Of a DNA stretch of 64,000 nt, positions 7,619 to 60,960 are shown piece by piece; positions within the stretch are counted from its first letter, which is position 1, and each line of letters starts with the position of its first letter. The notes below the pieces were generated by a model. The model made no database searches. It saw nothing but the letters and a program-made list of their open reading frames with translations, and was not told the DNA's origin. This DNA comes from Escherichia phage vB_EcoM_ASO1B. The DNA is taken from sequence record MZ726792.1; one strand, 5' to 3'. The position numbers and the translations under genes are program-made.

Positions 7619-7686
7619 GAAACTCTGTAGGATATTCACAATAGCCTAAGCCTTTCTTATCTGGTAAATTTTTCAGGTAAGGAGGG

Positions 7687-7873
7687 CTTTTTCATTTCAG
7701 ATTTGTGCAGGTAGAGTTCTGTAGAGAAATCTATAGAGAAAATTTTGAACTCCAAAGAGAAAATTCATTTTCAAACTGTGCAGGTAATCTCCAAAGAGCT
7801 TTTTCATTTTCAAAACGTGCAGACCCCGCTCAGGTCGGGCAAGAAAAATCATTTTAGAATTGTGCAGGTAGGT
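7687..7873. repeat. four direct repeats of ~25 bp (TTTCATTTyCArAwyTGTGCAGGTA)
   Basis: copies near 7687, 7765, 7798, 7848 in a non-coding stretch. Confidence 0.7.
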
Positions 7874-7885
7874 TTTTATAGACAG

Positions 7886-7927
7886 CCAGCCCAACCCCTC
7901 TCCCCCTCTTACTCCCCCTCTCCCAAA
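7886..7927. repeat. C-rich tract (G-rich on minus strand, G-quadruplex-capable)
   Basis: CCAGCCCAACCCCTCTCCCCCTCTTACTCCCCCTCTCCC in an AT-rich genome. Confidence 0.6.
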
Positions 7928-8046
7928 AAGTCAAGAGAAAAATTTGTAGCGGATTGAAAAATAATTCTTGATTTGCGTTCTGTTTTGTGGTAGTCGTGCG
8001 CACCCGTTTCATTACAGTTTTGCCAAAAATATTTTTAAAATTTTTA

Positions 8047-8138
8047 TTGACTCTTTGAACGTGGTTATCTAATATTTACATCAACGGGGAGGGAATGACC
8101 TTCCCCACTAAATAAAATCCTAAACTGGAGATTCAAAA
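8047..8138 (+). promoter_or_regulatory. PeSL-like cassette: sigma70-like promoter (TTGACT-17-TAATAT) + 5' leader hairpin + SD
   Basis: -35 8047-8052, -10 8070-8075; hairpin GGGGAGGG-AATGA-CCTTCCCC 8086-8106; SD GGAG before ATG 8139. Confidence 0.65.
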
Positions 8139-8327
8139 ATGGCATCAAGAAAAATTAAAGTTGGCGATGAGGTTAACATTAAGCACGAATACTCTTACAA
8201 AATGCTAACTATACGCTCTTATAAGGTTTATCAGGTGGAAGCTATCCACAAAGATAATACTTTTTCCTTAAAAGGGTATAGCGAACGTTTCCCTGCTGAA
8301 CTCTTTGAGAAATGGAGCGCGAAATAA
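8139..8327 (+). CDS. hypothetical small protein
   Basis: 62-aa ORF immediately after PeSL-like cassette. Confidence 0.5.
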   Translation: MASRKIKVGDEVNIKHEYSYKMLTIRSYKVYQVEAIHKDNTFSLKGYSERFPAELFEKWSAK

Positions 8328-8533
8328 TGCTTTACAGTCGTGAATTGATGGTTACAACTAACGTTAACACAAAGGTAAAACGTTTTTACATGCAAATTTG
8401 TGGCGTATGGTCTAGAATATCAGAAGCTGACTATTGCAACTATGTAGAAACAGCTATAAACTCTAATTGCTACCTTACAAGAAATACTAAGAATTTTACA
8501 AGGCAAACAGCGATTTACTATTACGATAAATAA
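8312..8533 (+). CDS. hypothetical small protein
   Basis: 73-aa ORF overlapping previous stop; alternative start at internal Met possible. Confidence 0.4.
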   Translation: MEREIMLYSRELMVTTNVNTKVKRFYMQICGVWSRISEADYCNYVETAINSNCYLTRNTKNFTRQTAIYYYDK

Positions 8534-8620
8534 AAGTACTTTACAAGGGGCTTATAGTTCGATAAAGTAAGCCTCAGATAAAGAGCTTTACCACTCAATC
8601 CTAAATTGGAGAACTTAAAA
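8531..8620 (+). promoter_or_regulatory. type-II intergenic cassette (CTTTACA + conserved hairpin + AGATAAAGAGCTTTAC + SD)
   Basis: hairpin GGGGCTTA...TAAGCCTC 8547-8575; one of six related copies. Confidence 0.6.
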
Positions 8621-8914
8621 ATGGCTATTATCAAAAACGTTGTAATTACTGCAAAGACTCGTGATGACGCTCGCGTTATGGCTAAAAAGTTATGCGGGAA
8701 AGTGGTTGACAATGGAAAACAATCTGCTGTAAGGTGGGGCGTGAAGGTTGATAAACAGTTGAAGTTAAAAAATTCACCGATAAACCTTTTTACATGTGTA
8801 AACACTATCGGGAAGACAAATGTATACACGAAAAAGGCATACATTAGACGCGTAGCATTAACATCCCCCATTCGTACAATGAGAAGTTATGCAAAGCTGA
8901 AAATTAACAAATAA
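8621..8914 (+). CDS. hypothetical protein
   Basis: ORF-track start 8606 is TTG; ATG at 8621 has SD TGGAG. Confidence 0.5.
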   Translation: MAIIKNVVITAKTRDDARVMAKKLCGKVVDNGKQSAVRWGVKVDKQLKLKNSPINLFTCVNTIGKTNVYTKKAYIRRVALTSPIRTMRSYAKLKINK

Positions 8915-8999
8915 AGTACTTTACAGGGGGCTTAAAAGCTGATACCTTAAGCCCCAGATAAAGAGCTTTACCACTAAATCCTAAACTGGAGATTCAAAA
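8913..8999 (+). promoter_or_regulatory. type-II intergenic cassette
   Basis: hairpin GGGGGCTTAA...TTAAGCCCC 8926-8955 with covarying stem; SD before ATG 9000. Confidence 0.6.
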
Positions 9000-9512
9000 A
9001 TGAAAACTGTAGACGCTACCTTTGAAGTTGTAAAAGAAAAATTCACTATTATTTATGAAGCTGTCAATTGCTTTGAAGCAAGCCATAATCTTGATAATTG
9101 GGAATTTACAGATGACCATCAAGGCGGTGTGACGATTAAAAATCCTAACTGTCAGCGTAATGAATTTAAATATGCAATCCCTTTACATTACAGCCTTAAA
9201 CAGCTTTCAAGTGACTATGCAAAACAAGGCCGGGCAAATCCATCAAAAGAGGCTTACATCAGCTTACAGAAAGAACTAGAAAGAGATTTAGAGGCTTCAG
9301 AATATAACATTGCCGCGAAAGTTGTAGATGCAAATGGCAGCACTGTTTTAGAAAGTTTTTATATTGGTTACGCTTTCGATTGGTGCTACAGTGACGGCGA
9401 TGATTTAGAGGATAGACTAAAAGAAGAGGTGAACAACGCAGACGCAGAATCTGAAGTATTAGAACGTTTGGAATCGTTGAAAGACTCAGTGATGAATATC
9501 TTTAAGAACTAA
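9000..9512 (+). CDS. hypothetical protein
   Basis: 170-aa ORF after type-II cassette. Confidence 0.55.
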   Translation: MKTVDATFEVVKEKFTIIYEAVNCFEASHNLDNWEFTDDHQGGVTIKNPNCQRNEFKYAIPLHYSLKQLSSDYAKQGRANPSKEAYISLQKELERDLEASEYNIAAKVVDANGSTVLESFYIGYAFDWCYSDGDDLEDRLKEEVNNADAESEVLERLESLKDSVMNIFKN

Positions 9513-9604
9513 ATAGATTCCTTTACACGGGGTTATCAAGCTGGTAGGATAGCCCCAGATAAAGAGATTTATCAAATAAAGCCCTTAAACTAGGAGATTC
9601 TAAA
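9513..9604 (+). promoter_or_regulatory. type-II intergenic cassette (divergent copy)
   Basis: hairpin GGGGTTATC...GATAGCCCC 9529-9556; SD AGGAG. Confidence 0.5.
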
Positions 9605-9901
9605 ATGAAATTATCAAATAAAGTTAGGGAAAACCTTAGTAAATTACTCAATAAAATTGATTTTATCGAGACATCAAGAAATAGTCATGATGTTATGGAA
9701 TGGTTACATGGCAAAATAAAAGGCCGTCGTGTAGTAATTTGCTTATGGAATAGTTGCAGGGAGTATAAAAAACCTGTATTGCAAGTTAATATATACGATG
9801 ATACTTTTAAAAGTCCTGTAAAGTCTAAAAGCGATTTATTAGAATCTTATGAGATATCTGTAAGTGGCAAAGTATCACGTAAAGAGGAAACACCATGTTA
9901 A
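9605..9901 (+). CDS. hypothetical protein
   Basis: 98-aa ORF. Confidence 0.5.
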   Translation: MKLSNKVRENLSKLLNKIDFIETSRNSHDVMEWLHGKIKGRRVVICLWNSCREYKKPVLQVNIYDDTFKSPVKSKSDLLESYEISVSGKVSRKEETPC

Positions 9902-10227
9902 TGACTGGTATCACTGCAATCATTGCCATTTTCGCTCTATATAAGGCATATAAAGCCTATAATCTAGCAAATAAGGCAACCACCCAGCAGGTTAGCAATA
10001 GCCTTGTAGAAAGCTTTCTAGGGCGTTTAAGTGATGAGCAAATAAAGCGGCTAGAGATGAGCTTCAGATATAAAGCGAAAACCTATCAGATAAGTGACAT
10101 CTTCAAAGATAATTTTCAGTTAGTTGATGATTATAATTCTCTGATAAATGCTTTAAATGTCAGTGACTTAAAAGACTACTACGTTGTAATTGTTCAAGAA
10201 TTGAGCAAACGAAAACAAAACTGTTGA
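9895..10227 (+). CDS. hypothetical small membrane protein
   Basis: 110 aa; hydrophobic N-terminus ITAIIAIFALY; start overlaps previous stop. Confidence 0.5.
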   Translation: MLMTGITAIIAIFALYKAYKAYNLANKATTQQVSNSLVESFLGRLSDEQIKRLEMSFRYKAKTYQISDIFKDNFQLVDDYNSLINALNVSDLKDYYVVIVQELSKRKQNC

Positions 10228-10316
10228 CACTGGTTTTTAGATAGATTAAATTACACATCAACGGGGAGGGAATGACCTTCCCCACTAAATAAAGTCCTAA
10301 ACTGGAGATTCTGAAA
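10224..10316 (+). promoter_or_regulatory. PeSL-like cassette (TTGACA-17-TAAATT + hairpin + SD)
   Basis: -35 10224-10229, -10 10247-10252, hairpin 10263-10283. Confidence 0.65.
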
Positions 10317-10475
10317 ATGTTTTGTGCAGGTGATAAAGTTGTCTGGAATGATATAGATGACGGTTTATGTACGAAAGTTGTTGTTATCCTAGAAATTGAT
10401 TATATCACTGGTGTTGCAACTGTAGCAGATAATGATATAATCTTTGATGTCTTAATTAGTGAACTGTCAAAATAA
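10317..10475 (+). CDS. hypothetical small protein (52 aa, absent from >=60-aa ORF track)
   Basis: ATG 7 nt after SD of PeSL cassette; in-frame stop TAA at 10473. Confidence 0.4.
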   Translation: MFCAGDKVVWNDIDDGLCTKVVVILEIDYITGVATVADNDIIFDVLISELSK

Positions 10476-10500
10476 AACCCTTAAACTAGGAGCTTTTAAA

Positions 10501-10773
10501 ATGTACACTACTAACAATGGTCGCACCTTAAATGTCACCTTGCGTCACTATGTAGACGGTGTGATGTGCTTTGAAGATTTACGGGCTGAGCAACACATCT
10601 TAAATTGGCAAGTTGCAGGACTCCAAAAAACTGCTACAGGATACGGGAAAAAGATTCCAACCAGTTGGAAAGTATACTACGAAGGACGTTTACGCAGAAT
10701 TTATCAAGATGTGCAAAGAAATAGCGCATCGAGTTACATTATAGTAAAAGGCAAAAAACTGCATTTAATGTAA
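10501..10773 (+). CDS. hypothetical protein
   Basis: ORF-track start 10459 is GTG; ATG 10501 has SD AGGAG. Confidence 0.5.
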   Translation: MYTTNNGRTLNVTLRHYVDGVMCFEDLRAEQHILNWQVAGLQKTATGYGKKIPTSWKVYYEGRLRRIYQDVQRNSASSYIIVKGKKLHLM

Positions 10774-10859
10774 AGTACTTTACAAGGGGCTTATAGTTCG
10801 ATAAAGTAAGCCCCAGATAAAGAGCTTTACTACTCAATCCTAAATTGGAGAACTTAAAA
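10774..10859 (+). promoter_or_regulatory. type-II intergenic cassette
   Basis: hairpin 10786-10814, near-identical to copy at 8547. Confidence 0.6.
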
Positions 10860-11264
10860 ATGGCTATTAATAACCGTGAATTATCAATTTTAAAAGCACG
10901 TTTGACCGTTAACCGGATTAATGTTATCACGTCATCAGCACCAGATGAAACACTGCAAAACATTATTGGGAAGATTCAAAGTGTTATCTTAGACGTTGAA
11001 AGCGTAAAAAACTCATTGACTGACGTTGCAGCAGGTATCACGCTAGACGGTGCACAACATGAAATGGCCGACATGTTAGGCAAATCTAAGGTAATGAATA
11101 AAGAGTTAGATTTGAAAATGTTCCGATTTGCTGTTAAAGTGTGGTTATCTGTCGAGTATGATGCTAACTTTGCAATCGCTGACTTTTTCGCCACTTGGTT
11201 GCAGCGTAATTTGGCAAATCACGATTTCCGTAATATCTGCGATGCAATTTATGCAGAACTATAA
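10860..11264 (+). CDS. hypothetical protein
   Basis: ORF-track start 10845 is TTG; ATG 10860 with SD. Confidence 0.5.
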   Translation: MAINNRELSILKARLTVNRINVITSSAPDETLQNIIGKIQSVILDVESVKNSLTDVAAGITLDGAQHEMADMLGKSKVMNKELDLKMFRFAVKVWLSVEYDANFAIADFFATWLQRNLANHDFRNICDAIYAEL

Positions 11265-11274
11265 AAAATTTTTG

Positions 11275-11367
11275 TTGACACTGGTTTTTAGATAGATTAA
11301 ATTACACATCAACGGGGAGGGAATGACCTTCCCCACTAAATAAAGTCCTAAACTGGAGATTCTGAAA
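11275..11367 (+). promoter_or_regulatory. PeSL-like cassette
   Basis: -35 TTGACA 11275-11280, -10 TAAATT 11298-11303, hairpin 11314-11334; near-identical to 10224 copy. Confidence 0.65.
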
Positions 11368-11571
11368 ATGGCTATTATTAATGGTTTAACCATTGAAACT
11401 ACACACATCAAAGATATCAAAGTTGGTGATATAGTCCTTTCCCACGGCGTAGAAAAAACTGTCACTGCAAAGGATATCAAAGAGGATTCTTTCATGGGTA
11501 GGACTCTCTTCGGTGATTCTTATTGCTTAGGCTATCTTGCAGTTTTAAAAGTTGTCAAAAATAACAAATAA
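11368..11571 (+). CDS. hypothetical small protein
   Basis: 67-aa ORF after PeSL cassette. Confidence 0.5.
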   Translation: MAIINGLTIETTHIKDIKVGDIVLSHGVEKTVTAKDIKEDSFMGRTLFGDSYCLGYLAVLKVVKNNK

Positions 11572-11657
11572 AGTACTTTACAAGGGGCTTAAAAGTTGAT
11601 AACTTAAGCCTCAGATAAAGAGCTTTACTACTAAATCCTAAACTGGAGATTCTAAAA
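11571..11657 (+). promoter_or_regulatory. type-II intergenic cassette
   Basis: hairpin GGGGCTTAA...TTAAGCCTC 11584-11612. Confidence 0.6.
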
Positions 11658-11906
11658 ATGATGAACTACTTTAACATTCCCGATACCTGTAGATTATTGA
11701 CACAAGAAGAAAATTTGGGTAAACCTTTCATTTACCACATGCCAGATAACACGGCAAAAACTTATAGTTACAATGTTAACCGTTTCACCGCATACGCTGC
11801 AAAGAACGGCTATAGGTTGGTTACTCAAAAAGTAATGCTGGTTACAACTGCTGGCGAGATTCCTACAGTTGCAGTCAAACTAGTTTTCTCAAAGAAAGTT
11901 AAATAA
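11658..11906 (+). CDS. hypothetical protein
   Basis: 82-aa ORF. Confidence 0.5.
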   Translation: MMNYFNIPDTCRLLTQEENLGKPFIYHMPDNTAKTYSYNVNRFTAYAAKNGYRLVTQKVMLVTTAGEIPTVAVKLVFSKKVK

Positions 11907-11991
11907 AGCACTTTACAAGGGGCTTATAGTTCGATAAAGTAAGCCCCAGATAAAGAGCTTTACTACTCAATCCTAAACTGGAGATTCAAAA
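11907..11991 (+). promoter_or_regulatory. type-II intergenic cassette
   Basis: hairpin 11929-11947 region; SD before ATG 11992. Confidence 0.6.
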
Positions 11992-12534
11992 ATGAAATGT
12001 TATCACGGAACTACTCAAGAAAATTTCCTCAACCTGATTAATAACGGTGATAAACCATCAGGCGCATGGAATTGTTCGGATATGGACGGCAATTTTTACG
12101 TGTATCCAGAAAATAAAATCTATGGCGACGATGATGAAGAGATAACATCGGAGGGCATTCAGCAAGCTCTAGGGAACGCCACTATTACGGCGGCCTTCCA
12201 GATGAAAACCCAAAATATTGTTATCTTAGAACTCGATATTCCAGATGATGAGCTAAATGATGATTATTCTTGTGATAATATGTCGAGTGTAGCAAGTTTT
12301 ACAGAGTACTTTGATGTAAACTGGATTAAAAAGGTCTATACAACAGAGTTTAACGCTATGTATTCGCCTTTTTGTCTTCCTTCACTGGATAACCCAAATA
12401 TGAACTATCTTGATGAGACATTAGAACTACTTGCTAAAAGTGTTCAACAGTCGGACAGTATTCAGGTTTTTTGTGACATCATAGATACACTGACAGGAAA
12501 CATTGCAGAAGAGGATTTAAAGAGCTTTTTCTAA
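11992..12534 (+). CDS. hypothetical acidic protein
   Basis: 180-aa ORF. Confidence 0.55.
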   Translation: MKCYHGTTQENFLNLINNGDKPSGAWNCSDMDGNFYVYPENKIYGDDDEEITSEGIQQALGNATITAAFQMKTQNIVILELDIPDDELNDDYSCDNMSSVASFTEYFDVNWIKKVYTTEFNAMYSPFCLPSLDNPNMNYLDETLELLAKSVQQSDSIQVFCDIIDTLTGNIAEEDLKSFF

Positions 12535-12565
12535 AAACCTATGCAATCACCTTATAAACACTAAT

Positions 12566-12590
12566 CAGCCCCCTTGTAGGGGCTTTTAGA
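12566..12590 (+). terminator. putative intrinsic terminator
   Basis: AGCCCCC-TTGTA-GGGGCT hairpin then TTT. Confidence 0.45.
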
Positions 12591-12601
12591 GGGCTTAAAT
12601 C

Positions 12602-12835
12602 ATGCTTACAACCGTTTATCTCATCCTCTCAATTTGTAATGGCCATTCATGTGACTTTAAAGGGCTTGAAGAGTTTACAGGAAGTAAAGAAAATGCTATT
12701 CAAGTTTGCCAGATAGCAAGGCAAGACTATCCCGCCAGTGATGATATACAATGTTACTTTAAGACAGAAGATGACGACGGAATTTATTTCGACAGTGTTG
12801 ACGGTCAATATGAAATTATCATTGAAAAAGACTAG
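12602..12835 (+). CDS. hypothetical small protein
   Basis: 77-aa ORF. Confidence 0.45.
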   Translation: MLTTVYLILSICNGHSCDFKGLEEFTGSKENAIQVCQIARQDYPASDDIQCYFKTEDDDGIYFDSVDGQYEIIIEKD

Positions 12836-12927
12836 ACAAGCCTGATAAAAGTCTGTAAATTGTCAATCAACGGGGAGGGAATGACCTTCCCCACTAAGTA
12901 AAGTCCTTAAACTAGGAGATTCTAAAA
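12833..12927 (+). promoter_or_regulatory. PeSL-like cassette (-10 TAAATT + hairpin + SD)
   Basis: -10 12856-12861; hairpin 12872-12892; SD AGGAG. Confidence 0.55.
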
Positions 12928-13269
12928 ATGGCTTATGTAACCATAATTACCGATAAAGCTGGCGCATCTTGGTCAACTCAGGTTAGTGATAAGATGTCAC
13001 CTATGCAGTGCCTAAAATACTTTGAACAGTGGAACAAAGGCGAGGACACAAGCCCCTTTCAAGTGATGCAGATTATCCATGTAGACAACGAAGGGAATAA
13101 AACGACCTTGAACAGTGAATACTACGCAAGCCGTTTTGAAACGAGAAGTAAAACAATGAAGCTTTTACGTGAATCCGGTTATGCCCATATCGCCGCGTTA
13201 ATCTGGGATGACCTGCTAAAAAGTCAGCGTATTAGCTATGTAAAGCCTGAAAAAATATTCATCAGTTAA
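12928..13269 (+). CDS. hypothetical protein
   Basis: 113-aa ORF. Confidence 0.55.
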   Translation: MAYVTIITDKAGASWSTQVSDKMSPMQCLKYFEQWNKGEDTSPFQVMQIIHVDNEGNKTTLNSEYYASRFETRSKTMKLLRESGYAHIAALIWDDLLKSQRISYVKPEKIFIS

Positions 13270-13301
13270 TCAATAACTTACAAAAAACTTTTAAAAAAGT
13301 G

Positions 13302-13330
13302 TTGACAATACCCCTTGACATTGGTAACTT
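13302..13330 (+). promoter_or_regulatory. sigma70-like promoter (TTGACA-17-TAACTT), tandem TTGACA boxes
   Basis: TTGACA at 13302 and 13316. Confidence 0.4.
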
Positions 13331-13421
13331 TGTTCGAGGGGGTTTATCTAAAAGGGATTCACTTAAAAGATTCTTTATAGATAAGCTCAAAAAATTACTT
13401 GCAATCAACTATCAAAACAAG

Positions 13422-13489
13422 TAAATTACTAATCAACGGGAAGGCAATAACCTCCCCACTAAATAAAGTCCTAAACTGGAGATTCTAAA
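13422..13489 (+). promoter_or_regulatory. PeSL-like cassette with covarying hairpin
   Basis: -10 TAAATT 13422-13427; hairpin GGGAAGG-CAATAA-CCTCCCC 13438-13457. Confidence 0.55.
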
Positions 13490-14020
13490 ATGAACAAATT
13501 TCAAGCTATCAACTTCATTCGTTCAAATACTGTAATGTCTAAGCCTGTAAAAGATACATACGAATTCCGTTGTAATGGGGTACATTTCGCAACAATCACC
13601 AAATCAGAAAACGGGACTTATTACGTTCATCGTCGTAATGTTTACACTGTTGTAGTCTCTCACTTTATGCAAGCTGTAGCGGAATTATTACCGTTATTCT
13701 TAGAGATTTACTTAGATGAGTGTAAAAACGTTCACAACCACGTTAAAAACCTTTTAAACGGTTATAAAATGGCTTATGAACGTTCTATCAAGTCCTTAAA
13801 CAAGTTCTATAAAGCCCCTGAAAACTCTGTTGCTTCAGCCTATGGCGTAGGCGGTTGGACTGTTAGTCTCTTCGAAGTGGAAGAAATCGAGCTTTACGAC
13901 CATCGACCTAACGGTTACTCTAAGACTCTCGGTGAAGGTTTAACGTTCAATATCAAGAACTTAGAAAAAACTTTAAAAGATATTGAAAAAGATATTGACG
14001 AGACAATAAAAAGTCTGTAA
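13490..14020 (+). CDS. hypothetical protein
   Basis: 176-aa ORF. Confidence 0.55.
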   Translation: MNKFQAINFIRSNTVMSKPVKDTYEFRCNGVHFATITKSENGTYYVHRRNVYTVVVSHFMQAVAELLPLFLEIYLDECKNVHNHVKNLLNGYKMAYERSIKSLNKFYKAPENSVASAYGVGGWTVSLFEVEEIELYDHRPNGYSKTLGEGLTFNIKNLEKTLKDIEKDIDETIKSL

Positions 14021-14086
14021 ATTGTCAATCAACGGGGAGGGAATGACCTTCCCCACTAAATAAAGTCCTAAACTGGAGTTATCAAG
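13995..14086 (+). promoter_or_regulatory. PeSL-like cassette (TTGACG-17-TAAATT + hairpin)
   Basis: -35 13995-14000, -10 14018-14023, hairpin 14034-14054; promoter lies in 3' end of upstream gene. Confidence 0.55.
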
Positions 14087-14350
14087 ATGGAAAACGTAGA
14101 ATTAACCACACTTTTACAAATTGCAACTGACAAAGAAGATGTAGCACTGTTTCACCGTATCGAAAGCGATTTATTCAATGGTGAAATCATCAAAGAATCT
14201 TATGAAGTTGTCGGATTCAAAGATGGTAAAGCGTTTGGCTTTTTTGACCTCGACAAAGGCAACGCTGTCACAAAGTATGATGTTGTATCTTGTGAGATTC
14301 TTACAAAATACAACGAAAAAAGGCTTGCAACATACGCCAATATACAGTAA
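14087..14350 (+). CDS. hypothetical protein
   Basis: 87-aa ORF. Confidence 0.5.
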   Translation: MENVELTTLLQIATDKEDVALFHRIESDLFNGEIIKESYEVVGFKDGKAFGFFDLDKGNAVTKYDVVSCEILTKYNEKRLATYANIQ

Positions 14351-14416
14351 ATTACTAATCAACGGGAGGCGATAACCTCCCCACTAAATAAAACCCTTAA
14401 ACTAGGAGATTCAAAA
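14348..14416 (+). promoter_or_regulatory. PeSL-like cassette with covarying hairpin
   Basis: -10 TAAATT 14348-14353; hairpin GGGAGG-CGATAA-CCTCCC 14364-14381. Confidence 0.55.
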
Positions 14417-14665
14417 ATGGCAACTATCCGCGCTACTGTCAATGCCTATGGCTGTTATACTCTGGACGTTAAATTTGATATTGGTGGAACTGATGAGTGT
14501 TTTTCATTAGTGAAGACAGTTATCAAACAAGTTATTCCAGATTATAACCCTACTGATGACTTCTGGAAAGATGCTGTAAAAGAGGCATTAAACGACGAGC
14601 ATCACTATCATTACTGGGGTGACTTGATTGTTTCCCTGTACTACAATAAACAAGGTTACAACTAA
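14417..14665 (+). CDS. hypothetical protein
   Basis: 82-aa ORF, last gene of rightward array. Confidence 0.5.
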   Translation: MATIRATVNAYGCYTLDVKFDIGGTDECFSLVKTVIKQVIPDYNPTDDFWKDAVKEALNDEHHYHYWGDLIVSLYYNKQGYN

Positions 14666-14704
14666 TCGACGCAACGGGGCTAAATAGCCCCAGATACCTC
14701 AACA

Positions 14705-14728
14705 GCCCCTATTTAAAGGGGCTTTTTT
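14705..14728 (+). terminator. rho-independent terminator ending rightward early array
   Basis: GCCCCT-ATTTAA-AGGGGC hairpin plus T6; second hairpin GGGGCT-AAAT-AGCCCC at 14676-14691. Confidence 0.65.
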
Positions 14729-14739
14729 ACGTCTATTGA

Positions 14740-16265
14740 ATCCTTATACAATCCCTTTCCAGAATCTTATCAGACCTTAAAAGCAATAACTCTATAGTCT
14801 ACTCTATAACCTCTTATCAAATCAACTTAAATAAAAGCCAATAACCCCCAGAAAGGGGATGGCCCATTTAAACGCTCTATAAAGCTCTATAACAGCCTTA
14901 TCAACCTAACTTAAGGGATTGCATTAACCAACCTTAAAAAGCTCTTTACAGGGCTTTATAGAGACTTAAAAGAATCTTATAAGGGTGTAAGCTTTATCAT
15001 CTCGTTAGTATCTTGTGAATAACTAAAAAGGGCTTGTTAGTGTCTTAAAAGTATGTTATAGGGGCTTAAAAGTTACTTCAAAGTTACGTAAAAGGGGCTA
15101 TAAAGTTACGTAAATGCTAGCCCCCTTAACATTTTCTTAACAATTTCTTAACAATCCCTACATAGTTATGCTTTTAAGGCACTTGTTAGCAACTTGTTAG
15201 CCCCTTGTTAAATCTCTGTTAAGACCACGTAAAAGCCTTGTAAGAACCTTTGACATAGCCTTAAAAGCCCCTGTAAAGCCCTATAAAGAGGTATCTGTAC
15301 AGTTGGGGGGTAAATACTAGGAAGAGATTTAAAAGAGGCTATAAAGAGCTATAGAGGGCTTTTAAGAGGTATGTTTAAGGAATCACTAAGAAAGGAAAGG
15401 GAACGATAAGAAAAGAGTAGTGACCTTGTTAATAGCTTGTTAAAAAGATTAAACACTTGTTAGAGACTTGTTAATTATCTTAACAAAATAACTCTTAAAA
15501 ATTAACTTGTTAGCTATTGTTAGTCATCTGTTAAGATTCTGTAAAGTCCATGTATCAACTGTTAAGAAACTGTTAAGCCCTTGTTAGTTCTTTTAAGAAT
15601 CTGTTAAGACCTATGAAGAGTTGTTAAGAAGGTGTTAGAACTGTTAAGAGATTGTTAAGGATATTTTAAAATTTTGCAAAGTACTTGTAAGGGAGCTGTT
15701 AAGGGCTACCAAGCAGATATACATCCTATTCAGATATTTTTGAGTTCCTTCAAAGACCCTAAAAAATGACTTGATAACCCTATTTTATAAAAATTTTAAA
15801 ATTCTGAATAATTACCTATACAGTCTTCTAAAAATACAGGCATAAACAGGCTTATAAGATACCTTGTTAGTACCGTGTTAGACCTTGTGAGATAAGGCCT
15901 GTAAAGATATTCCTGTTAAGTTTGTTAAAACAGTCTATATAGAGGCTTAGTAATACCTAGTGAACACCTATAGAGGGTATCATAGCTTACCTAGAGATTA
16001 AGAGGTGTATAGGAGCTTCTAAGAGGGTGTAGAGAGATGGTTAAGGTGATTGTATAGGCTGTTAAGAAGGCTTGTTAGAAGAGTGTTTAGAAGGCTTGTT
16101 AGAAGGGCTATACAGAGGGCTATTAAGACCACTAGATAGTTACTAAGATACTATATAGTACTATATAACTATATATAGAGAGTAAGATTAAGAAGGTTGT
16201 TAAGAAGGGTAGATATTTTGTTCACATATGATGGTGACCCAGAGGTTGGGACAACCGATAAAATT
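14740..16265. repeat. ORF-free repeat-dense zone (iteron-like yTGTTArG arrays, direct repeats, TATA-rich micro-repeats)
   Basis: no ORF >=60 aa on either strand; >20 copies of CTTGTTAG/CTGTTAAG-like motif within 15130-15680 and 16060-16110; 15-bp direct repeat AAGGCTTGTTAGAAG x2; ACTATATA x3 near 16150. Confidence 0.7.
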
Positions 16266-16275
16266 TTATAAAAAT

Positions 16276-26488: not shown

Positions 26489-26565
26489 CTCTGTTTAGCT
26501 CAGCTTGGTAGAGCGTTCCGTTTGGGGCGGTAAGGCCGGAGGTTCAAGTCCTCCAACAGAGACCA
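26489..26565 (+). tRNA. tRNA-Pro (anticodon TGG)
   Basis: 7-bp acceptor CTCTGTT/AACAGAG, T-arm GGAGG-TTCAAGT-CCTCC, anticodon loop TTTGGGG, encoded CCA. Confidence 0.7.
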
Positions 26566-26572
26566 AATTAAT

Positions 26573-26650
26573 GTTCCAGTAGACAAAATGGTAAAGTCAC
26601 CACTCTTTCAAAGTGGATATCTGAGGGTTCAAATCCCTTCTGGAACGCCA
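26573..26650 (+). tRNA. tRNA-Glu (anticodon TTC)
   Basis: acceptor GTTCCAG/CTGGAAC, anticodon stem CCACT/AGTGG loop CTTTCAA, T-loop TTCAAAT, CCA. Confidence 0.7.
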
Positions 26651-26657
26651 GTTTTGA

Positions 26658-26729
26658 CAGAAGACCAATTACAGCAAACTTAATCTACTCATCTGACACG
26701 AAATCGGACAAAGAAGATATTTGGTCTGG
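26658..26729 (+). ncRNA. stem-closed module 1 (5' CAGAAGACCAA ... TTGGTCTGG 3')
   Basis: conserved 5' motif CAGAAGACC-N4-ACAGCAA and complementary 3' GGTCTGG; between tRNAs. Confidence 0.35.
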
Positions 26730-26740
26730 TCATTGAGAAT

Positions 26741-26817
26741 TGCGGGTATAGAGAAAGGGCGTCTCACATGTCTCATTAGCATGGTATCGGCAGGTTCGAC
26801 TCCTGCACCCGCCTCCA
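26741..26817 (+). tRNA. tRNA with CAT anticodon (Met or Ile2), U1-C72 mismatch
   Basis: acceptor TGCGGGT/ACCCGCC, D-stem GAGA/TCTC, anticodon stem CATGT/GCATG loop CTCATTA, T-arm GCAGG-TTCGACT-CCTGC, CCA. Confidence 0.55.
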
Positions 26818-26823
26818 ATTTTG

Positions 26824-26883
26824 CAGAAGACCGTATTCAGCAACAAAATACTTTTTGCGGATAAAAGAAAAAACACGGTCTGG
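26824..26883 (+). ncRNA. stem-closed module 2 (CAGAAGACCGT ... ACGGTCTGG)
   Basis: same terminal motifs as module 1 with compensatory change in closing stem. Confidence 0.35.
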
Positions 26884-26894
26884 CAATGTATTAA

Positions 26895-26971
26895 GGTTAG
26901 GAAGCACATAAGGTATGTGCGGTCGCCTGTTAAGCGAATGGCACAGGGTTCGAATCCCTGACTAACCGCCA
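26895..26971 (+). tRNA. tRNA-Asn (anticodon GTT)
   Basis: acceptor GGTTAGG/ACTAACC, anticodon loop CTGTTAA, T-arm CAGGG-TTCGAAT-CCCTG, CCA. Confidence 0.7.
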
Positions 26972-26980
26972 AATTTAAAT

Positions 26981-27068
26981 GTGTCGTTATCCCGTAGATG
27001 GTAGCGGTGGGGACTGTAAATCCCTTGTCATTGAGACTCGGTAGGTTCGACTCCTACACGGCACACCA
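26981..27068 (+). tRNA. tRNA-Tyr (anticodon GTA), long variable arm
   Basis: acceptor GTGTCGT/ACGGCAC, anticodon stem GGGGA/TCCCT loop CTGTAAA, 88 nt, CCA. Confidence 0.7.
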
Positions 27069-27073
27069 ATAAA

Positions 27074-27151
27074 GGTTATGTAGTTTAATTTGGTTAAAAT
27101 ACTCCCCTGTCACGGGAGATGATGAGGGTTCAAATCCCTTCGTAACCGCCA
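27074..27151 (+). tRNA. tRNA-Asp (anticodon GTC)
   Basis: acceptor GGTTATG/CGTAACC, anticodon stem CTCCC/GGGAG loop CTGTCAC, CCA. Confidence 0.7.
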
Positions 27152-27213
27152 ATTTTGAGAGGGCTATTTAGCCCCTCCCTTAAAGGGTTCTTACGAGTAT
27201 CCTTTAAAGGAGC

Positions 27214-27285
27214 AGAAGACCAAATACAGCAAGAACGTATGAAATTTCAAGCCAATTTAATTTTGAAAATTTAAACTTGGTCTGG
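27214..27285 (+). ncRNA. stem-closed module 3 (CAGAAGACCAA ... TTGGTCTGG)
   Basis: same conserved termini; internal AT-rich palindrome. Confidence 0.35.
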
Positions 27286-27298
27286 CTCAACAAATTTA

Positions 27299-59229: not shown

Positions 59230-59470
59230 AGCTTATTTGGCAGATTTTTTATAAGGCTACTGCCATCCTTCCATACATCACCTTACCTTACCTCACCTGA
59301 CCTGACCTGACCCTACCTAACATTACCGTGCCACACCTCACTTAAAAACCCTCTTAAAAGACTCTTAAGTGATGTAATCGAATTTTAATGTAGCTCCGAT
59401 TAACTACCCATACCTTACTCCGCCTCACCTTACCTAACCGTACCGTACCATACCTGACATAACCGTGCCT
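59230..59470. repeat. pentamer-repeat tract (minus strand AGGTN x ~10) plus ~45-bp blocks shared with 60660-60960
   Basis: CACCTTACCTTACCTCACCTGACCTGACCTGACCCTACCT on plus strand. Confidence 0.65.
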
Positions 59471-59502
59471 TACCTTATTAAAAGACCCTCTTTAAAGACC
59501 TT

Positions 59503-59527
59503 TTAAAAAGGAGCCTCCGAAGAGGCT
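59503..59527 (-). terminator. intrinsic terminator downstream of 59539-59979
   Basis: minus-strand AGCCTC-TTCG-GAGGCT hairpin followed by T-run. Confidence 0.55.
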
Positions 59528-59538
59528 ACCTAGTCAAC

Positions 59539-59979
59539 TTAGAAAGGTTTTCTGCGTTGCTTGTTAATATTAGCTTTCATAGCAGCTAAGTGATTTTGCT
59601 GTTCAATCAGTCGTGAACGTTCTTGATGACTAAGTGCCATAGTGTTCACATTCTCAATCGCTTGAGTGGCTTGCTTTAAAGCACGACCAATCTTACCAGA
59701 CATTTTGCGTTTTGCAATAGTTGCTTGATGCTTAGGTTCAACCACACGATAACCAACACCCATTGAAGCAACCAGATAAATCTTCTCTTCTTTAAGAAGT
59801 TTTTCAATAAACTTTTCAAGTCGGTTTAGACGTGTAAGCGCATAAGCCTTCATTTCATCTTCGTACTTAACAATGTCACCTTGATAAGTTGGCTTCACAA
59901 TACCTAAGAAGGTGTCCATCTCAGAATGTGATACAGTGTCACCGTAACTAAACTTTGCTGCTAATGCTTTTGTATTCAT
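59539..59979 (-). CDS. hypothetical protein
   Basis: 146-aa ORF. Confidence 0.5.
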   Translation of the reverse strand: MNTKALAAKFSYGDTVSHSEMDTFLGIVKPTYQGDIVKYEDEMKAYALTRLNRLEKFIEKLLKEEKIYLVASMGVGYRVVEPKHQATIAKRKMSGKIGRALKQATQAIENVNTMALSHQERSRLIEQQNHLAAMKANINKQRRKPF

Positions 59980-59981
59980 AA

Positions 59982-60587
<606 letters not shown>

Positions 60588-60659
60588 TTAGTTGATTGTT
60601 AAGTTGTTTGTAAAGAACCCTCAACAGAAGACTCTTTAGAAACTTGGTAGATTTTTAAC

Positions 60660-60960
60660 GTGGCTACTACCATCCACCCATACCTCACCTCACTTAACCT
60701 CACCCTACCACACCAGACATCACCTTACCATACAGCACCTTATTAAAAGACCCTCTTAAAGACCTTTTAAAAAGGTAAGTCTCATTTTAATGTAGCTGAG
60801 ACTAACTACCCGCACTTTACCGCACCGGACCTTACCGGACCGCACATCACCGCACTAAACCAGACATCACATTACCTGACCACACCAAACCAAACATCAC
60901 ATTACTTAAAAACCCTCTTAGAAGACTCTTAAGTGATGTTGGTGAGTACCCGTTGGTTTA
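60660..60960. repeat. second copy of composite intergenic repeat (ACC-rich short repeats, shared 33- and 45-bp blocks)
   Basis: shares ACTTAAAAACCCTCTTAGAAGACTCTTAAGTGATG and TTATTAAAAGACCCTCTTAAAGACCTTTTAAAAAGG with 59340-59520. Confidence 0.65.

Follow-up and report, generated by a model that had tools for sequence, protein, structure and literature searches.

Promoter-early-stem-loop (PeSL) cassettes have been described in the T4-type phages RB49/phi1, T4/PST and KVP40/nt-1 (PMC2839356, PMC4122927). In PeSLs described so far, the stem-loop mostly occupies the interval between the -35 and -10 elements or overlaps them, upstream of the transcription start, and is treated as a terminator, with a position downstream of the -10 defining the rarest subclass (PMC2839356). 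Here, we describe cassettes of a similar design in Escherichia phage vB_EcoM_ASO1B (sequence record MZ726792.1), of which a stretch of 64,000 nucleotides (nt), hereafter the window, was analysed. Positions 8047-14419 most likely represent the hyperplastic early region of a Felix O1-like phage. They hold 13 cassettes in direct orientation, seven of a class termed type A and six of a class termed type B, each located before one or two small genes of unknown function, and every cassette copy of the 64-kb window is confined to 8.0-14.4 kb.

The interval is 100% identical to the record of phage vB_EcoM_ASO1A (MZ726791.1; Ounavirinae, Felixounavirus), with equal coordinates in both, and "ASO1A" served as reference in all comparisons with relatives. 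A sequence search with type A cassette DNA returned 1107 matches spread over 246 records of phages of Escherichia, Salmonella, Shigella and Citrobacter, and type B cassette DNA returned 1456 matches in 287 records, which also included Erwinia phages. These matches were almost exclusively to Ounavirinae-type records, and no T4-type phage record was matched by the cassette DNA in the same search. Because the phage is not of the T4 type and its cassette DNA lacks a T4-type match, we file the cassettes as working like PeSLs and not as members by descent; as judged from the sequences, the resemblance is one of design. No paper linking PeSLs with Felix O1-like phages was found in the literature searched, and the Felix O1-like genome papers among it contain generic promoter and terminator predictions only. 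The Felix O1 genome paper lists a 57-base-pair (bp) repeat (type B) and a 39-bp repeat (type A promoter) as 'direct repeats', outside its promoter list, and states that it is not known how transcription is temporally regulated (PMC3185647).

Type A cassettes share a fixed order of a -35 element, a spacer of exactly 17 bp, a -10 element reading TAAATT (six of seven copies) or TAATAT (one of seven), four variable nt, ATCAAC, a hairpin, and ACTAAATAAAGTCCTAAACTGGAGATTCnAAAATG. Their -35 elements (TTGACT, TTGACA twice, TAGACA, TTGCAA twice and TTGACG) start at 8047, 10224, 11275, 12833, 13399, 13995 and 14325. The seven copies are the following:

8047-8141, plus strand: cassette A1, with -35 TTGACT at 8047-8052, -10 TAATAT at 8070-8075, hairpin at 8086-8106, GGAG at 8127-8130 and ATG at 8139.
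10224-10319, plus strand: cassette A2, with -35 TTGACA at 10224-10229, -10 TAAATT at 10247-10252, hairpin at 10263-10283, GGAG at 10304-10307 and ATG at 10317.
11275-11370, plus strand: cassette A3, with -35 TTGACA, -10 TAAATT at 11298-11303, hairpin at 11314-11334, GGAG at 11355-11358 and ATG at 11368.
12833-12930, plus strand: cassette A4, with -35 TAGACA, -10 TAAATT at 12856-12861, hairpin at 12872-12892, the ribosome-site variant AGGAG and ATG at 12928.
13399-13492, plus strand: cassette A5, with -35 TTGCAA, -10 TAAATT at 13422-13427, a weakened hairpin at 13438-13457 and ATG at 13490.
13995-14089, plus strand: cassette A6, with -35 TTGACG, -10 TAAATT at 14018-14023, hairpin at 14034-14054 and ATG at 14087.
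14325-14419, plus strand: cassette A7, with -35 TTGCAA, -10 TAAATT at 14348-14353, hairpin at 14364-14381 (GGGAGG CGATAA CCTCCC) and ATG at 14417.

Cassettes A2 and A3 are 100% identical over 98 nt. The -35 of A2 overlaps the stop codon of the upstream gene, as does the -10 of A6. A preliminary description of this DNA had listed seven cassettes before the open reading frames (ORFs) starting at 8139, 10317, 11368, 12928, 13490, 14087 and 14417. All seven are present on the plus strand with the -10 sequences it gave, and its three stem/loop variants were found as quoted; the list had overlooked the six type B copies and a ribosome-site-only copy at 10470-10503. The type A repeats are not a product of chance, because matches to their core and to their ribosome-site block far exceed the expected counts. 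The core ATCAACGGGRRGG had seven matches at 0-1 mismatch in the window, all on the plus strand within 8080-14370, and ten matches at up to two mismatches compared to 1.9 expected, a number reached in none of 100 shuffles. The ribosome-site block CCTAAACTGGAGATTC had nine matches in the window compared to 0.65 expected.

Five of the seven hairpins in the window are identical (GGGGAGGG AATGA CCTTCCCC), with one G.T wobble and a predicted stability of -15.2 kcal/mol. The hairpin at 13438 (GGGAAGG CAATAA CCTCCCC) carries an A.C mismatch and reaches -8.0 kcal/mol, and the hairpin at 14364 has a clean 6-bp stem. Since five hairpins are identical, the variant at 13438 is mismatched and the main variant contains a wobble, the window on its own provides weak covariation. 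The earlier claim that pairing is conserved as the stem sequence drifts thus finds little backing within the window, and was upheld by covariation once relatives were added.

The early regions of the following relatives were compared: Felix O1, EcoM2, PHB11, VpaE1_ev78, XTG1, LMP25 and Shy (Felixounavirus), Mijalis, Maleficent and Sf13 (Mooglevirus), SUSP2 and PC79-13 (Suspvirus), and Erwinia phage Coenus. The sample amounted to 14 Ounavirinae genomes plus Felix O1-like metagenomic fragments. A search of the public collection with the pattern ATCAACGN{12,28}ACTAAATAAA was too loose, with single matches falling mostly on unrelated contigs, and Felix O1-like fragments with multiple matches were retained from it. 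A fuzzy regular expression for type A was too permissive, and copies were collected by anchoring on the ribosome-site module.

Among 66 distinct type A -35-to--10 contexts from Ounavirinae phages, 65 have a -35 element matching TTGACA in at least four of six positions at exactly 17 bp from the -10, in line with the promoter proposed in the preliminary description. At least five of six positions match in 43 of the 66 contexts, compared to 2.4% in the background. The -10 is always TAnnnT (TAAATT in 36 contexts, TAAAGT in 11, TAATAT in 9 and TAGTAT in 5). The -35 and spacer sequences in many cases share bases with the end of the gene upstream; because they differ from copy to copy, it is the promoter geometry that is conserved and not simply a repeat. 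The type A element is a predicted sigma-70 promoter. A-tracts precede the type A -35, and A/T-rich upstream tracts were recognised by eye at 8020-8046 (AAATATTTTTAAAATTTTTA) and 11262-11274 (TAAAAAATTTTTG), with AATAAAGTAC ahead of every type B copy. In the depositors' record, promoters are annotated at three of the seven type A copies, including 8047-8073.

By the rule of thumb that transcription starts 7-8 nt after the -10, here at an invariant CA, the predicted type A starts are 8082/8083, 10259/60, 11310/1, 12868/9, 13434/5, 14030/1 and 14360/1. In the searchable literature, no 5'-end mapping for any Ounavirinae phage and no transcriptome or start-site study of any Felixounavirus was found. 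Reverse-transcription PCR in Felix O1 showed maximal levels of ORF16, 20, 21 and 22, all located behind cassettes, at 5 min after infection (PMC3185647). These timing data partially support early expression of the cassette genes.

A hairpin is found in 73 of 76 unique type A leaders, beginning 6-8 nt after the A of ATCAAC. Its stem measures 4-8 bp and differs widely among copies (GGGGAGGG/CCUUCCCC, GGGGAGG/CCUCCCC, GGGAGG/CCUCCC, GGGC/GCCC, GGGGU/GCCCC, GGGGC/GCCCC, GGGA/UCCC, GGGGAAG/CUUCCCC and GGGGAGG/CUUCCCC), and its loops are equally diverse (AAUGA, CGAUAA, AAGCAA, AACA, GAAA, GAGA, AAAUCA and AAGAUAAA). Of the 66 contexts, 50 have their first paired base 10 nt after the -10, which corresponds to +3/+4 from the predicted start; in ten the distance is 11 nt, in two 9 nt and in one 12 nt, and the remaining three promoters, all in relatives, lack the hairpin.

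Covariation was tested by aligning both arms in register from the base of the stem and shuffling the partners 500 times. Paired cells made up 86.1% of the type A stem, compared to 73.3 +/- 1.4% in the shuffles (reached in 0 of 500), and sliding the partner by 1-3 columns lowered pairing to 71% or less. Six of seven stem pairs were changed on both sides (reached in 1 of 500 shuffles), double changes occurred in 36 cells where 14.1 were expected, and the covariation score was 0.376 compared to 0.160 in the shuffles (0 of 500). A separate depth analysis of the stem agreed with the shuffle test. G.U pairs are frequent in type A stems, and the predicted fold is more stable on the sense than on the antisense strand in 40 of 64 copies of type A and in 53 of 79 copies of type B; for both reasons, selection would act on the RNA, or at least on the plus strand. 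Together, the occurrence of the hairpin in nearly all leaders with differing stems, the double changes and the covariation score strongly suggest that the type A hairpin is under structural selection, as the preliminary description had proposed.

Two other roles for the hairpin sequence were considered and rejected. The main variant contains a mini-ORF (ATG ACC TTC CCC ACT AAA TAA, encoding MTFPTK), whose ATG is lost in the CAATAA, CGATAA, AAGCAA and GAAA loops. Likewise, the CCUCC of the 3' arm could mimic an anti-Shine-Dalgarno sequence pairing with the downstream GGAG, and the GGGC/GCCC, GGGGC/GCCCC and GGGA/UCCC variants are without CCUCC. As a separate observation, the hairpin-less type A derivatives retain promoter and ribosome site with the hairpin deleted (e.g. 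ATCAAGCCCACTTCC, with an apparent loss of the 5' arm and loop). Among the relatives compared, they lie upstream of 9392 in one, of 11526 and 12069 in another, and of 7908 in Sf13.

Interleaved with type A are the six copies of type B, in which a TTTACA-N17-TAnnnT promoter lies inside a three-tier hairpin that is followed by the shared ribosome site:

8533-8623, plus strand: cassette B1, with TTTACA at 8540-8545, N17, TAAAGT at 8563-8568, hairpin at 8533-8591 and ATG at 8621.
8913-9002, plus strand: cassette B2, with TTTACA at 8920-8925, N17, (TGa)TACCTT at 8943-8948, hairpin at 8913-8971 and ATG at 9000.
9515-9607, plus strand: cassette B3, with the divergent stem GGGGTTATC/GATAGCCCC, TTTACA at 9522-9527, N17, (TGg)TAGGAT at 9545-9550, hairpin at 9515-9572 and ATG at 9605.
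10772-10862, plus strand: cassette B4, with TTTACA at 10779-10784, N17, TAAAGT at 10802-10807, hairpin at 10772-10830 and ATG at 10860.
11570-11660, plus strand: cassette B5, with TTTACA at 11577-11582, N17, (TGa)TAACTT at 11600-11605, hairpin at 11570-11628 and ATG at 11658.
11905-11994, plus strand: cassette B6, with TTTACA at 11912-11917, N17, TAAAGT at 11935-11940, hairpin at 11905-11963 and ATG at 11992.

In 62 unique type B copies, CTTTACA, which includes the -35, is invariant together with the T, the A and the final T of the hexamer located 17-18 bp further on, and the three inner positions of the hexamer vary along with the adjacent loop bases. As these hexamer positions are invariant although they lie in the hairpin loop or 3' arm, where pairing demands no invariance, the hexamer is likely a real -10. 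In many copies, it is directly preceded by TGn, resulting in an extended -10. Transcription is predicted to start about 7 nt after TAnnnT, near the A of CCCCAGATAAAG. The three tiers (AAAGU/GCUUU, CUUUA/UAAAG and GGGGCUUA/UAAGCCCC) are separated by 1x1 and 3x3 internal loops, and this helix is predicted in all six window copies at -17 to -22 kcal/mol. Across the unique copies, 99.0% of the cells in the helix are paired, and slid registers reach no more than 63%. A compensatory change is seen at one pair (G-C in 38, U-A in 14 copies), and others form wobble series (C-G 28, U.G 33, U-A 1; A-U 49, G.U 13). A further compensatory change is seen in the upper stem of an Erwinia phage (GGUG...CACC compared to GGGG...CCCC). 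Type B is therefore best described as a predicted promoter within a stem-loop that would form in RNA reading through from upstream.

Erwinia phage Coenus shows the same design in unrelated sequence. Before its gene 9108, a terminator with a T-run has TTTACA (-35) in its loop, with TATACT 18 bp further on and a leader hairpin (GGUUGA-GCAG-UCAACC) 9 nt after this -10. Before its gene 9752, the -10 TAAAAT lies within the loop of a GGGGG/CCCCC stem.

Common to both classes is a ribosome-binding module of about 35 nt, which also occurs in one lone copy and precedes 14 genes in total. GGAG lies 8-9 nt ahead of the ATG in all 13 cassettes. The lone copy is located as follows:

10470-10503, plus strand: ribosome-site module alone, AAATAAAACCCTTAAACTAGGAGCTTTTAAAATG, before ATG 10501.

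A 52-amino-acid (aa) ORF at 10317-10475, labelled 'No homologues' in the record, is flanked by two such modules, that of cassette A2 and the copy at 10470, and is absent from Felix O1, XTG1 and LMP25.

Gene content between cassettes differs among the relatives, for which the preliminary description had called for a comparison. In comparisons with the seven Felixounavirus relatives, homology blocks have 43 internal ends, of which 32 by our count fall within cassettes, which make up 21% of the region; against all twelve relatives, 71 of 113 block ends do so. In four indels, two flanking ASO1A cassettes map to a single chimeric cassette of the relative, in which the left partner switches to the right partner within the sequence they share:

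Cassettes A6/A7, compared to Felix O1 and PHB11: ORF 14087 absent, switch at the -10.
Cassettes A5/A6, compared to VpaE1_ev78: ORF 13490 absent, switch in or after the hairpin.
Cassettes A3/A4, compared to Felix O1: 11368-12835 with four ORFs absent, switch between the hairpin and the ribosome site.
Cassettes B1/B2, compared to Felix O1: ORF 8621 absent, single chimeric cassette.

Because gene-sized indels have to end between genes anyway, it is the chimeric cassettes that provide specific evidence. They support the view that cassettes recombine with one another and that genes are thereby gained, lost and replaced, in agreement with the PeSL shuffling model. Before ORF 12602, modules meet at a boundary of another kind, since homology with phage Shy and the Mooglevirus phages restarts at about 12577-12578 and the junction at 12540-12600 contains no cassette; a small hairpin (AGCCCCCTTGTAGGGGCT) followed by TTTTAG is present there.

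The cassette region is located downstream of rIIA/rIIB, between two canonical terminators identified by a scan for hairpins followed by T-runs:

7648-7699, plus strand: canonical terminator (hairpin and T-run) at 7648-7689, left boundary of the cassette region, which ends the upstream operon.
14704-14733, plus strand: canonical terminator (hairpin and T-run) at 14704-14723, AGCCCCTATTTAAAGGGGCT TTTTT, right boundary of the cassette region.

Ten cargo proteins run against PHROGs fell without exception into 'unknown function' families, and a Pfam scan of ten returned no match. At the Rfam gathering threshold, only 23 tRNAs were found in the window, with no match within 8-15 kb; these tRNA genes form an array at 26489-31637 that is typical for Felix O1-like phages. 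An ORF of 73 aa at 8312-8533 on the plus strand has no annotation in the ASO1A record. Over this ORF, the DNA shares 91.8% identity with the part of Felix O1 that includes ORF15 (Felix01p030), so the annotation has probably missed a gene here, which would be transcribed together with ORF 8139 from cassette A1.

Repeats of other kinds flank the region. The gap at 7690-7925, which separates the first type A promoter from the terminator upstream of it, contains three copies of CTCCAAAGAG..CATTTTCAAACTGTGCAG and then a C-rich tract (CCCCTCTCCCCCTCTTACTCCCCCTCTCCC). On the other side, 14730-16270 comprises 1.6 kb between convergent terminators with no ORF of at least 40 aa, and is dense in short repeats spaced by about 10-11 nt in both orientations (CTGTTAAGA, CTTGTTAG, CTTAAAAG and CTATAAAG). 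This tract resembles an iteron array and is possibly a replication origin or protein-binding region; a similar tract is present in Shigella phage Sf13, at about 9600-10300 of its early-region sequence. Far downstream, 59279-60939 holds four repeats of about 97 nt, which are made of 8-9-nt units of the form ACCTnACC and each close with a AAAAGACCCTCTTAAAAGAC-like sequence.

We favour, with moderate confidence, a model combining a strong sigma-70 early promoter, a protective 5' hairpin, a standard translation start and the shuffling of genes between cassettes. Host sigma-70 RNA polymerase would use the A/T-rich tract, the -35, the 17-bp spacer and the TAAATT of type A, and transcription would start at the CA 7-8 nt after the -10, giving an mRNA whose 5' end reads (C)AAC, with 2-3 unpaired bases before the G/C-clamped hairpin. 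This hairpin probably shields the short early mRNAs from 5'-end-dependent decay (RppH, RNase E) and would keep the translation start ACTAAATAAAGTCCTAAACTGGAGATTCnAAAATG folded alike whatever gene is attached. In E. coli, mRNA decay by RNase E depends on the 5' end and involves RppH, and ompA-type 5' stem-loops are protective. Such hairpins need no particular sequence, which is why the free drift of the type A stem fits this role. In read-through RNA, the type B hairpin could serve as a 3'-end, attenuator or processing structure. Since 60-100 bp of almost the same sequence is repeated at intervals of 0.3-2 kb, cassettes would undergo homologous recombination that deletes, inserts or replaces modules, with a working promoter and ribosome site always left behind. 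Within this model, the repeats, the conserved promoter elements, the covarying hairpin at its fixed position and the chimeric cassettes at indel junctions are observed, and we infer where transcription starts, that the hairpin stabilises the mRNA and what becomes of RNA at type B hairpins.

Several points weigh against the model. Placing the hairpin at the very 5' end of type A mRNA is an extrapolation. Felix O1 ORF17, 19 and 23, which also lie behind cassettes, peak at 25 min (PMC3185647). The sequences in the covariation test are related by descent and duplication, and the test is biased towards register 0 because its hairpin limits come from folds of the individual sequences. The advantage of the sense strand averages a modest 1.4 kcal/mol for type A, and the hairpin is not indispensable, because three promoters in relatives lack it and one stem in the window is weakened. 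Intergenic breakpoints are partly expected for any gene-sized indel. Finally, a PeSL stem-loop cut lacZ expression as strongly as rrnB T1 (PMC2839356), a result that speaks for the hairpins being terminators or attenuators.

As terminators or attenuators, the hairpins would hold back read-through from the many promoters upstream and leave each gene dependent mainly on its own cassette for expression, an account we consider rather unlikely. The depositors' WebGeSTer label 'rho-independent terminator' has been placed on type A hairpins at 10263-10293, 11314-11344 and 12872-12902, promoter-coupled terminators are widespread in bacteria (bioRxiv 10.64898/2026.08.19.745784), and type B, with its hairpin ahead of its own predicted start, could plausibly act in this way. 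However, neither hairpin type is followed by a T-run: the terminator scan reported the flanking sites at 7648 and 14704 only and none of the 13 cassette hairpins, the type A post-stem tail ACTAAATA contains two T in eight positions, and the Felix O1 terminator table has no entry between t13 and t23 (PMC3185647). A terminator between the type A promoter and its own ribosome site would moreover be self-defeating, and one acting on upstream transcripts would not need the fixing to within about 1 nt of the -10 that is observed. The database label of the type A hairpins as terminators is probably wrong. At the corresponding places, the XTG1 annotators put terminators on the opposite (minus) strand.

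The type A hairpin might be an RNA site for a phage or host factor, either in boxB/nut- or put-like antitermination, for which lambda nut and HK022 put offer a comparison, or as the target of a regulator or endoribonuclease that sets the timing of early genes together with the conserved GGAG module. In favour of this, the element lies close to the promoter, its structure is conserved, the leader of about 35 nt that comes after it is conserved to an unusual degree and common to 14 genes, and several variants have GNRA-type tetraloops (GAAA, GAGA). A sequence-specific binder would, however, not tolerate a loop that is conserved in neither sequence nor length on a stem of 4-8 bp; there is a single hairpin only, with no boxA-like element seen and no Rfam match, and the region contains no T-run terminators that an antiterminated polymerase would have to read through. 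We therefore regard a factor-binding site as very doubtful. A bolder version, in which Ounavirinae evolved an independent integron-like cassette system with two interchangeable promoter-hairpin adaptors, whose type A hairpin and GGAG leader are the handle by which a phage factor (e.g. an endoribonuclease or RNA-binding regulator) switches early accessory genes off or on jointly, strikes us as quite unlikely. The inverted repeat could also be without RNA function. It would then matter at the DNA level, whether as a recombination hotspot, a cruciform or an operator, or be a passive passenger in a repeat that spreads by recombination. Crossovers lie inside cassettes, two of them in or beside the hairpin, PeSL mini-circle junctions likewise mapped to stem-loops (PMC2839356), and five identical copies in the window fit a recent spread. 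Against this, the compensatory changes and the frequent G.U pairs, which are A.C on the other strand, argue for selection on sense-strand pairing; the stem sequence is not conserved as in an operator, and the Erwinia phage has the same architecture in unrelated sequence. An inverted repeat without RNA function is thus highly improbable.

Felix O1-like phages are widely used in Salmonella and E. coli typing, biocontrol and therapy. For these phages, our analysis supplies 13 concrete candidate early promoters in 6.4 kb and corrects the terminator labels on probable leader hairpins. Beyond the preliminary description, it adds a second cassette class, family-wide covariation and what the chimeric junctions present as direct evidence of cassette-mediated recombination. 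Module shuffling by cassettes, previously limited to T4-type phages in the literature searched, thereby extends to an unrelated myovirus family, which supports the idea that standardised adaptors of promoter, hairpin and ribosome site are a general route by which virulent phages acquire and test accessory genes. The cassettes may also be compact, portable expression parts with a strong promoter, a predicted defined 5' end and a fixed translation start, and the type A hairpin variants could be used as a natural mutational series for 5'-end-dependent mRNA decay.

Three described systems resemble parts of the cassettes. The first type A comparison is with the 5'-terminal stabilising stem-loops of E. 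coli mRNAs, of the kind found in the ompA 5' untranslated region, reportedly described by Emory, Bouvet and Belasco in 1992. Hairpins of this E. coli kind begin at most about 2-4 unpaired nt from the 5' end, a distance predicted to be 2-3 nt in our case, and neither hairpin has a stem or loop sequence requirement, whereas the cassette hairpin is mass-produced within a repeat on many phage genes. In the early region of phage T7, intercistronic RNase III hairpins (R0.3 to R1.3), built of an upper stem, an internal loop and a lower stem, leave a protective 3' hairpin; sites for this enzyme comprise about two turns of interrupted double-stranded RNA. Type B resembles them as an interrupted helix of about 23 stacked positions (5 + 5 + 9 bp, with 1x1 and 3x3 loops) between early genes and differs in also holding a conserved promoter; type A stems, at 4-8 bp, are too short for this comparison. 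In promoter-coupled terminators (bioRxiv 10.64898/2026.08.19.745784), as in the cassettes, the DNA of a stem-loop overlaps the promoter of the next unit between tandem genes. There, however, a T-tract lies just upstream of the -10 and the stem-loop provides the -35, whereas the Felix O1-type cassettes have no T-tract, which the Coenus copy before gene 9108 does have.

The closest match remains the PeSLs, to which the preliminary description had likened the cassettes, a reading that our analysis nowhere contradicted and whose main points it independently backed. Both have an A/T-rich tract in which the stop codon of the upstream gene lies, and a promoter of sigma-70-like type whose spacer measures 17 bp. 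Both further contain a G(n)-loop-C(n) stem-loop that includes G.T pairs, and carry a Shine-Dalgarno sequence and ATG at the 3' end. PeSLs are likewise clustered among small ORFan genes, and show indels in which two cassettes correspond to one chimeric cassette (figure 3, PMC2839356), as in the four cases found here. Type B follows the layout seen most often in PeSLs, in which the stem-loop lies between the two promoter elements or covers the -10, and its promoter is close to the T4/PST consensus TTTACW-N17-TAYWAT. In contrast to PeSLs, the cassettes belong to the Ounavirinae, which are not T4-like, and comprise two interleaved classes with one long ribosome-binding module. In addition, the type A hairpin mostly begins 10 nt past the -10. 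It therefore follows the predicted start and would be part of the transcript as its 5' leader, for which the rarest PeSL subclass is the nearest match. Taken together, the cassettes cleanly carry an established principle into a further phage family, and do not amount to a system of a new type.

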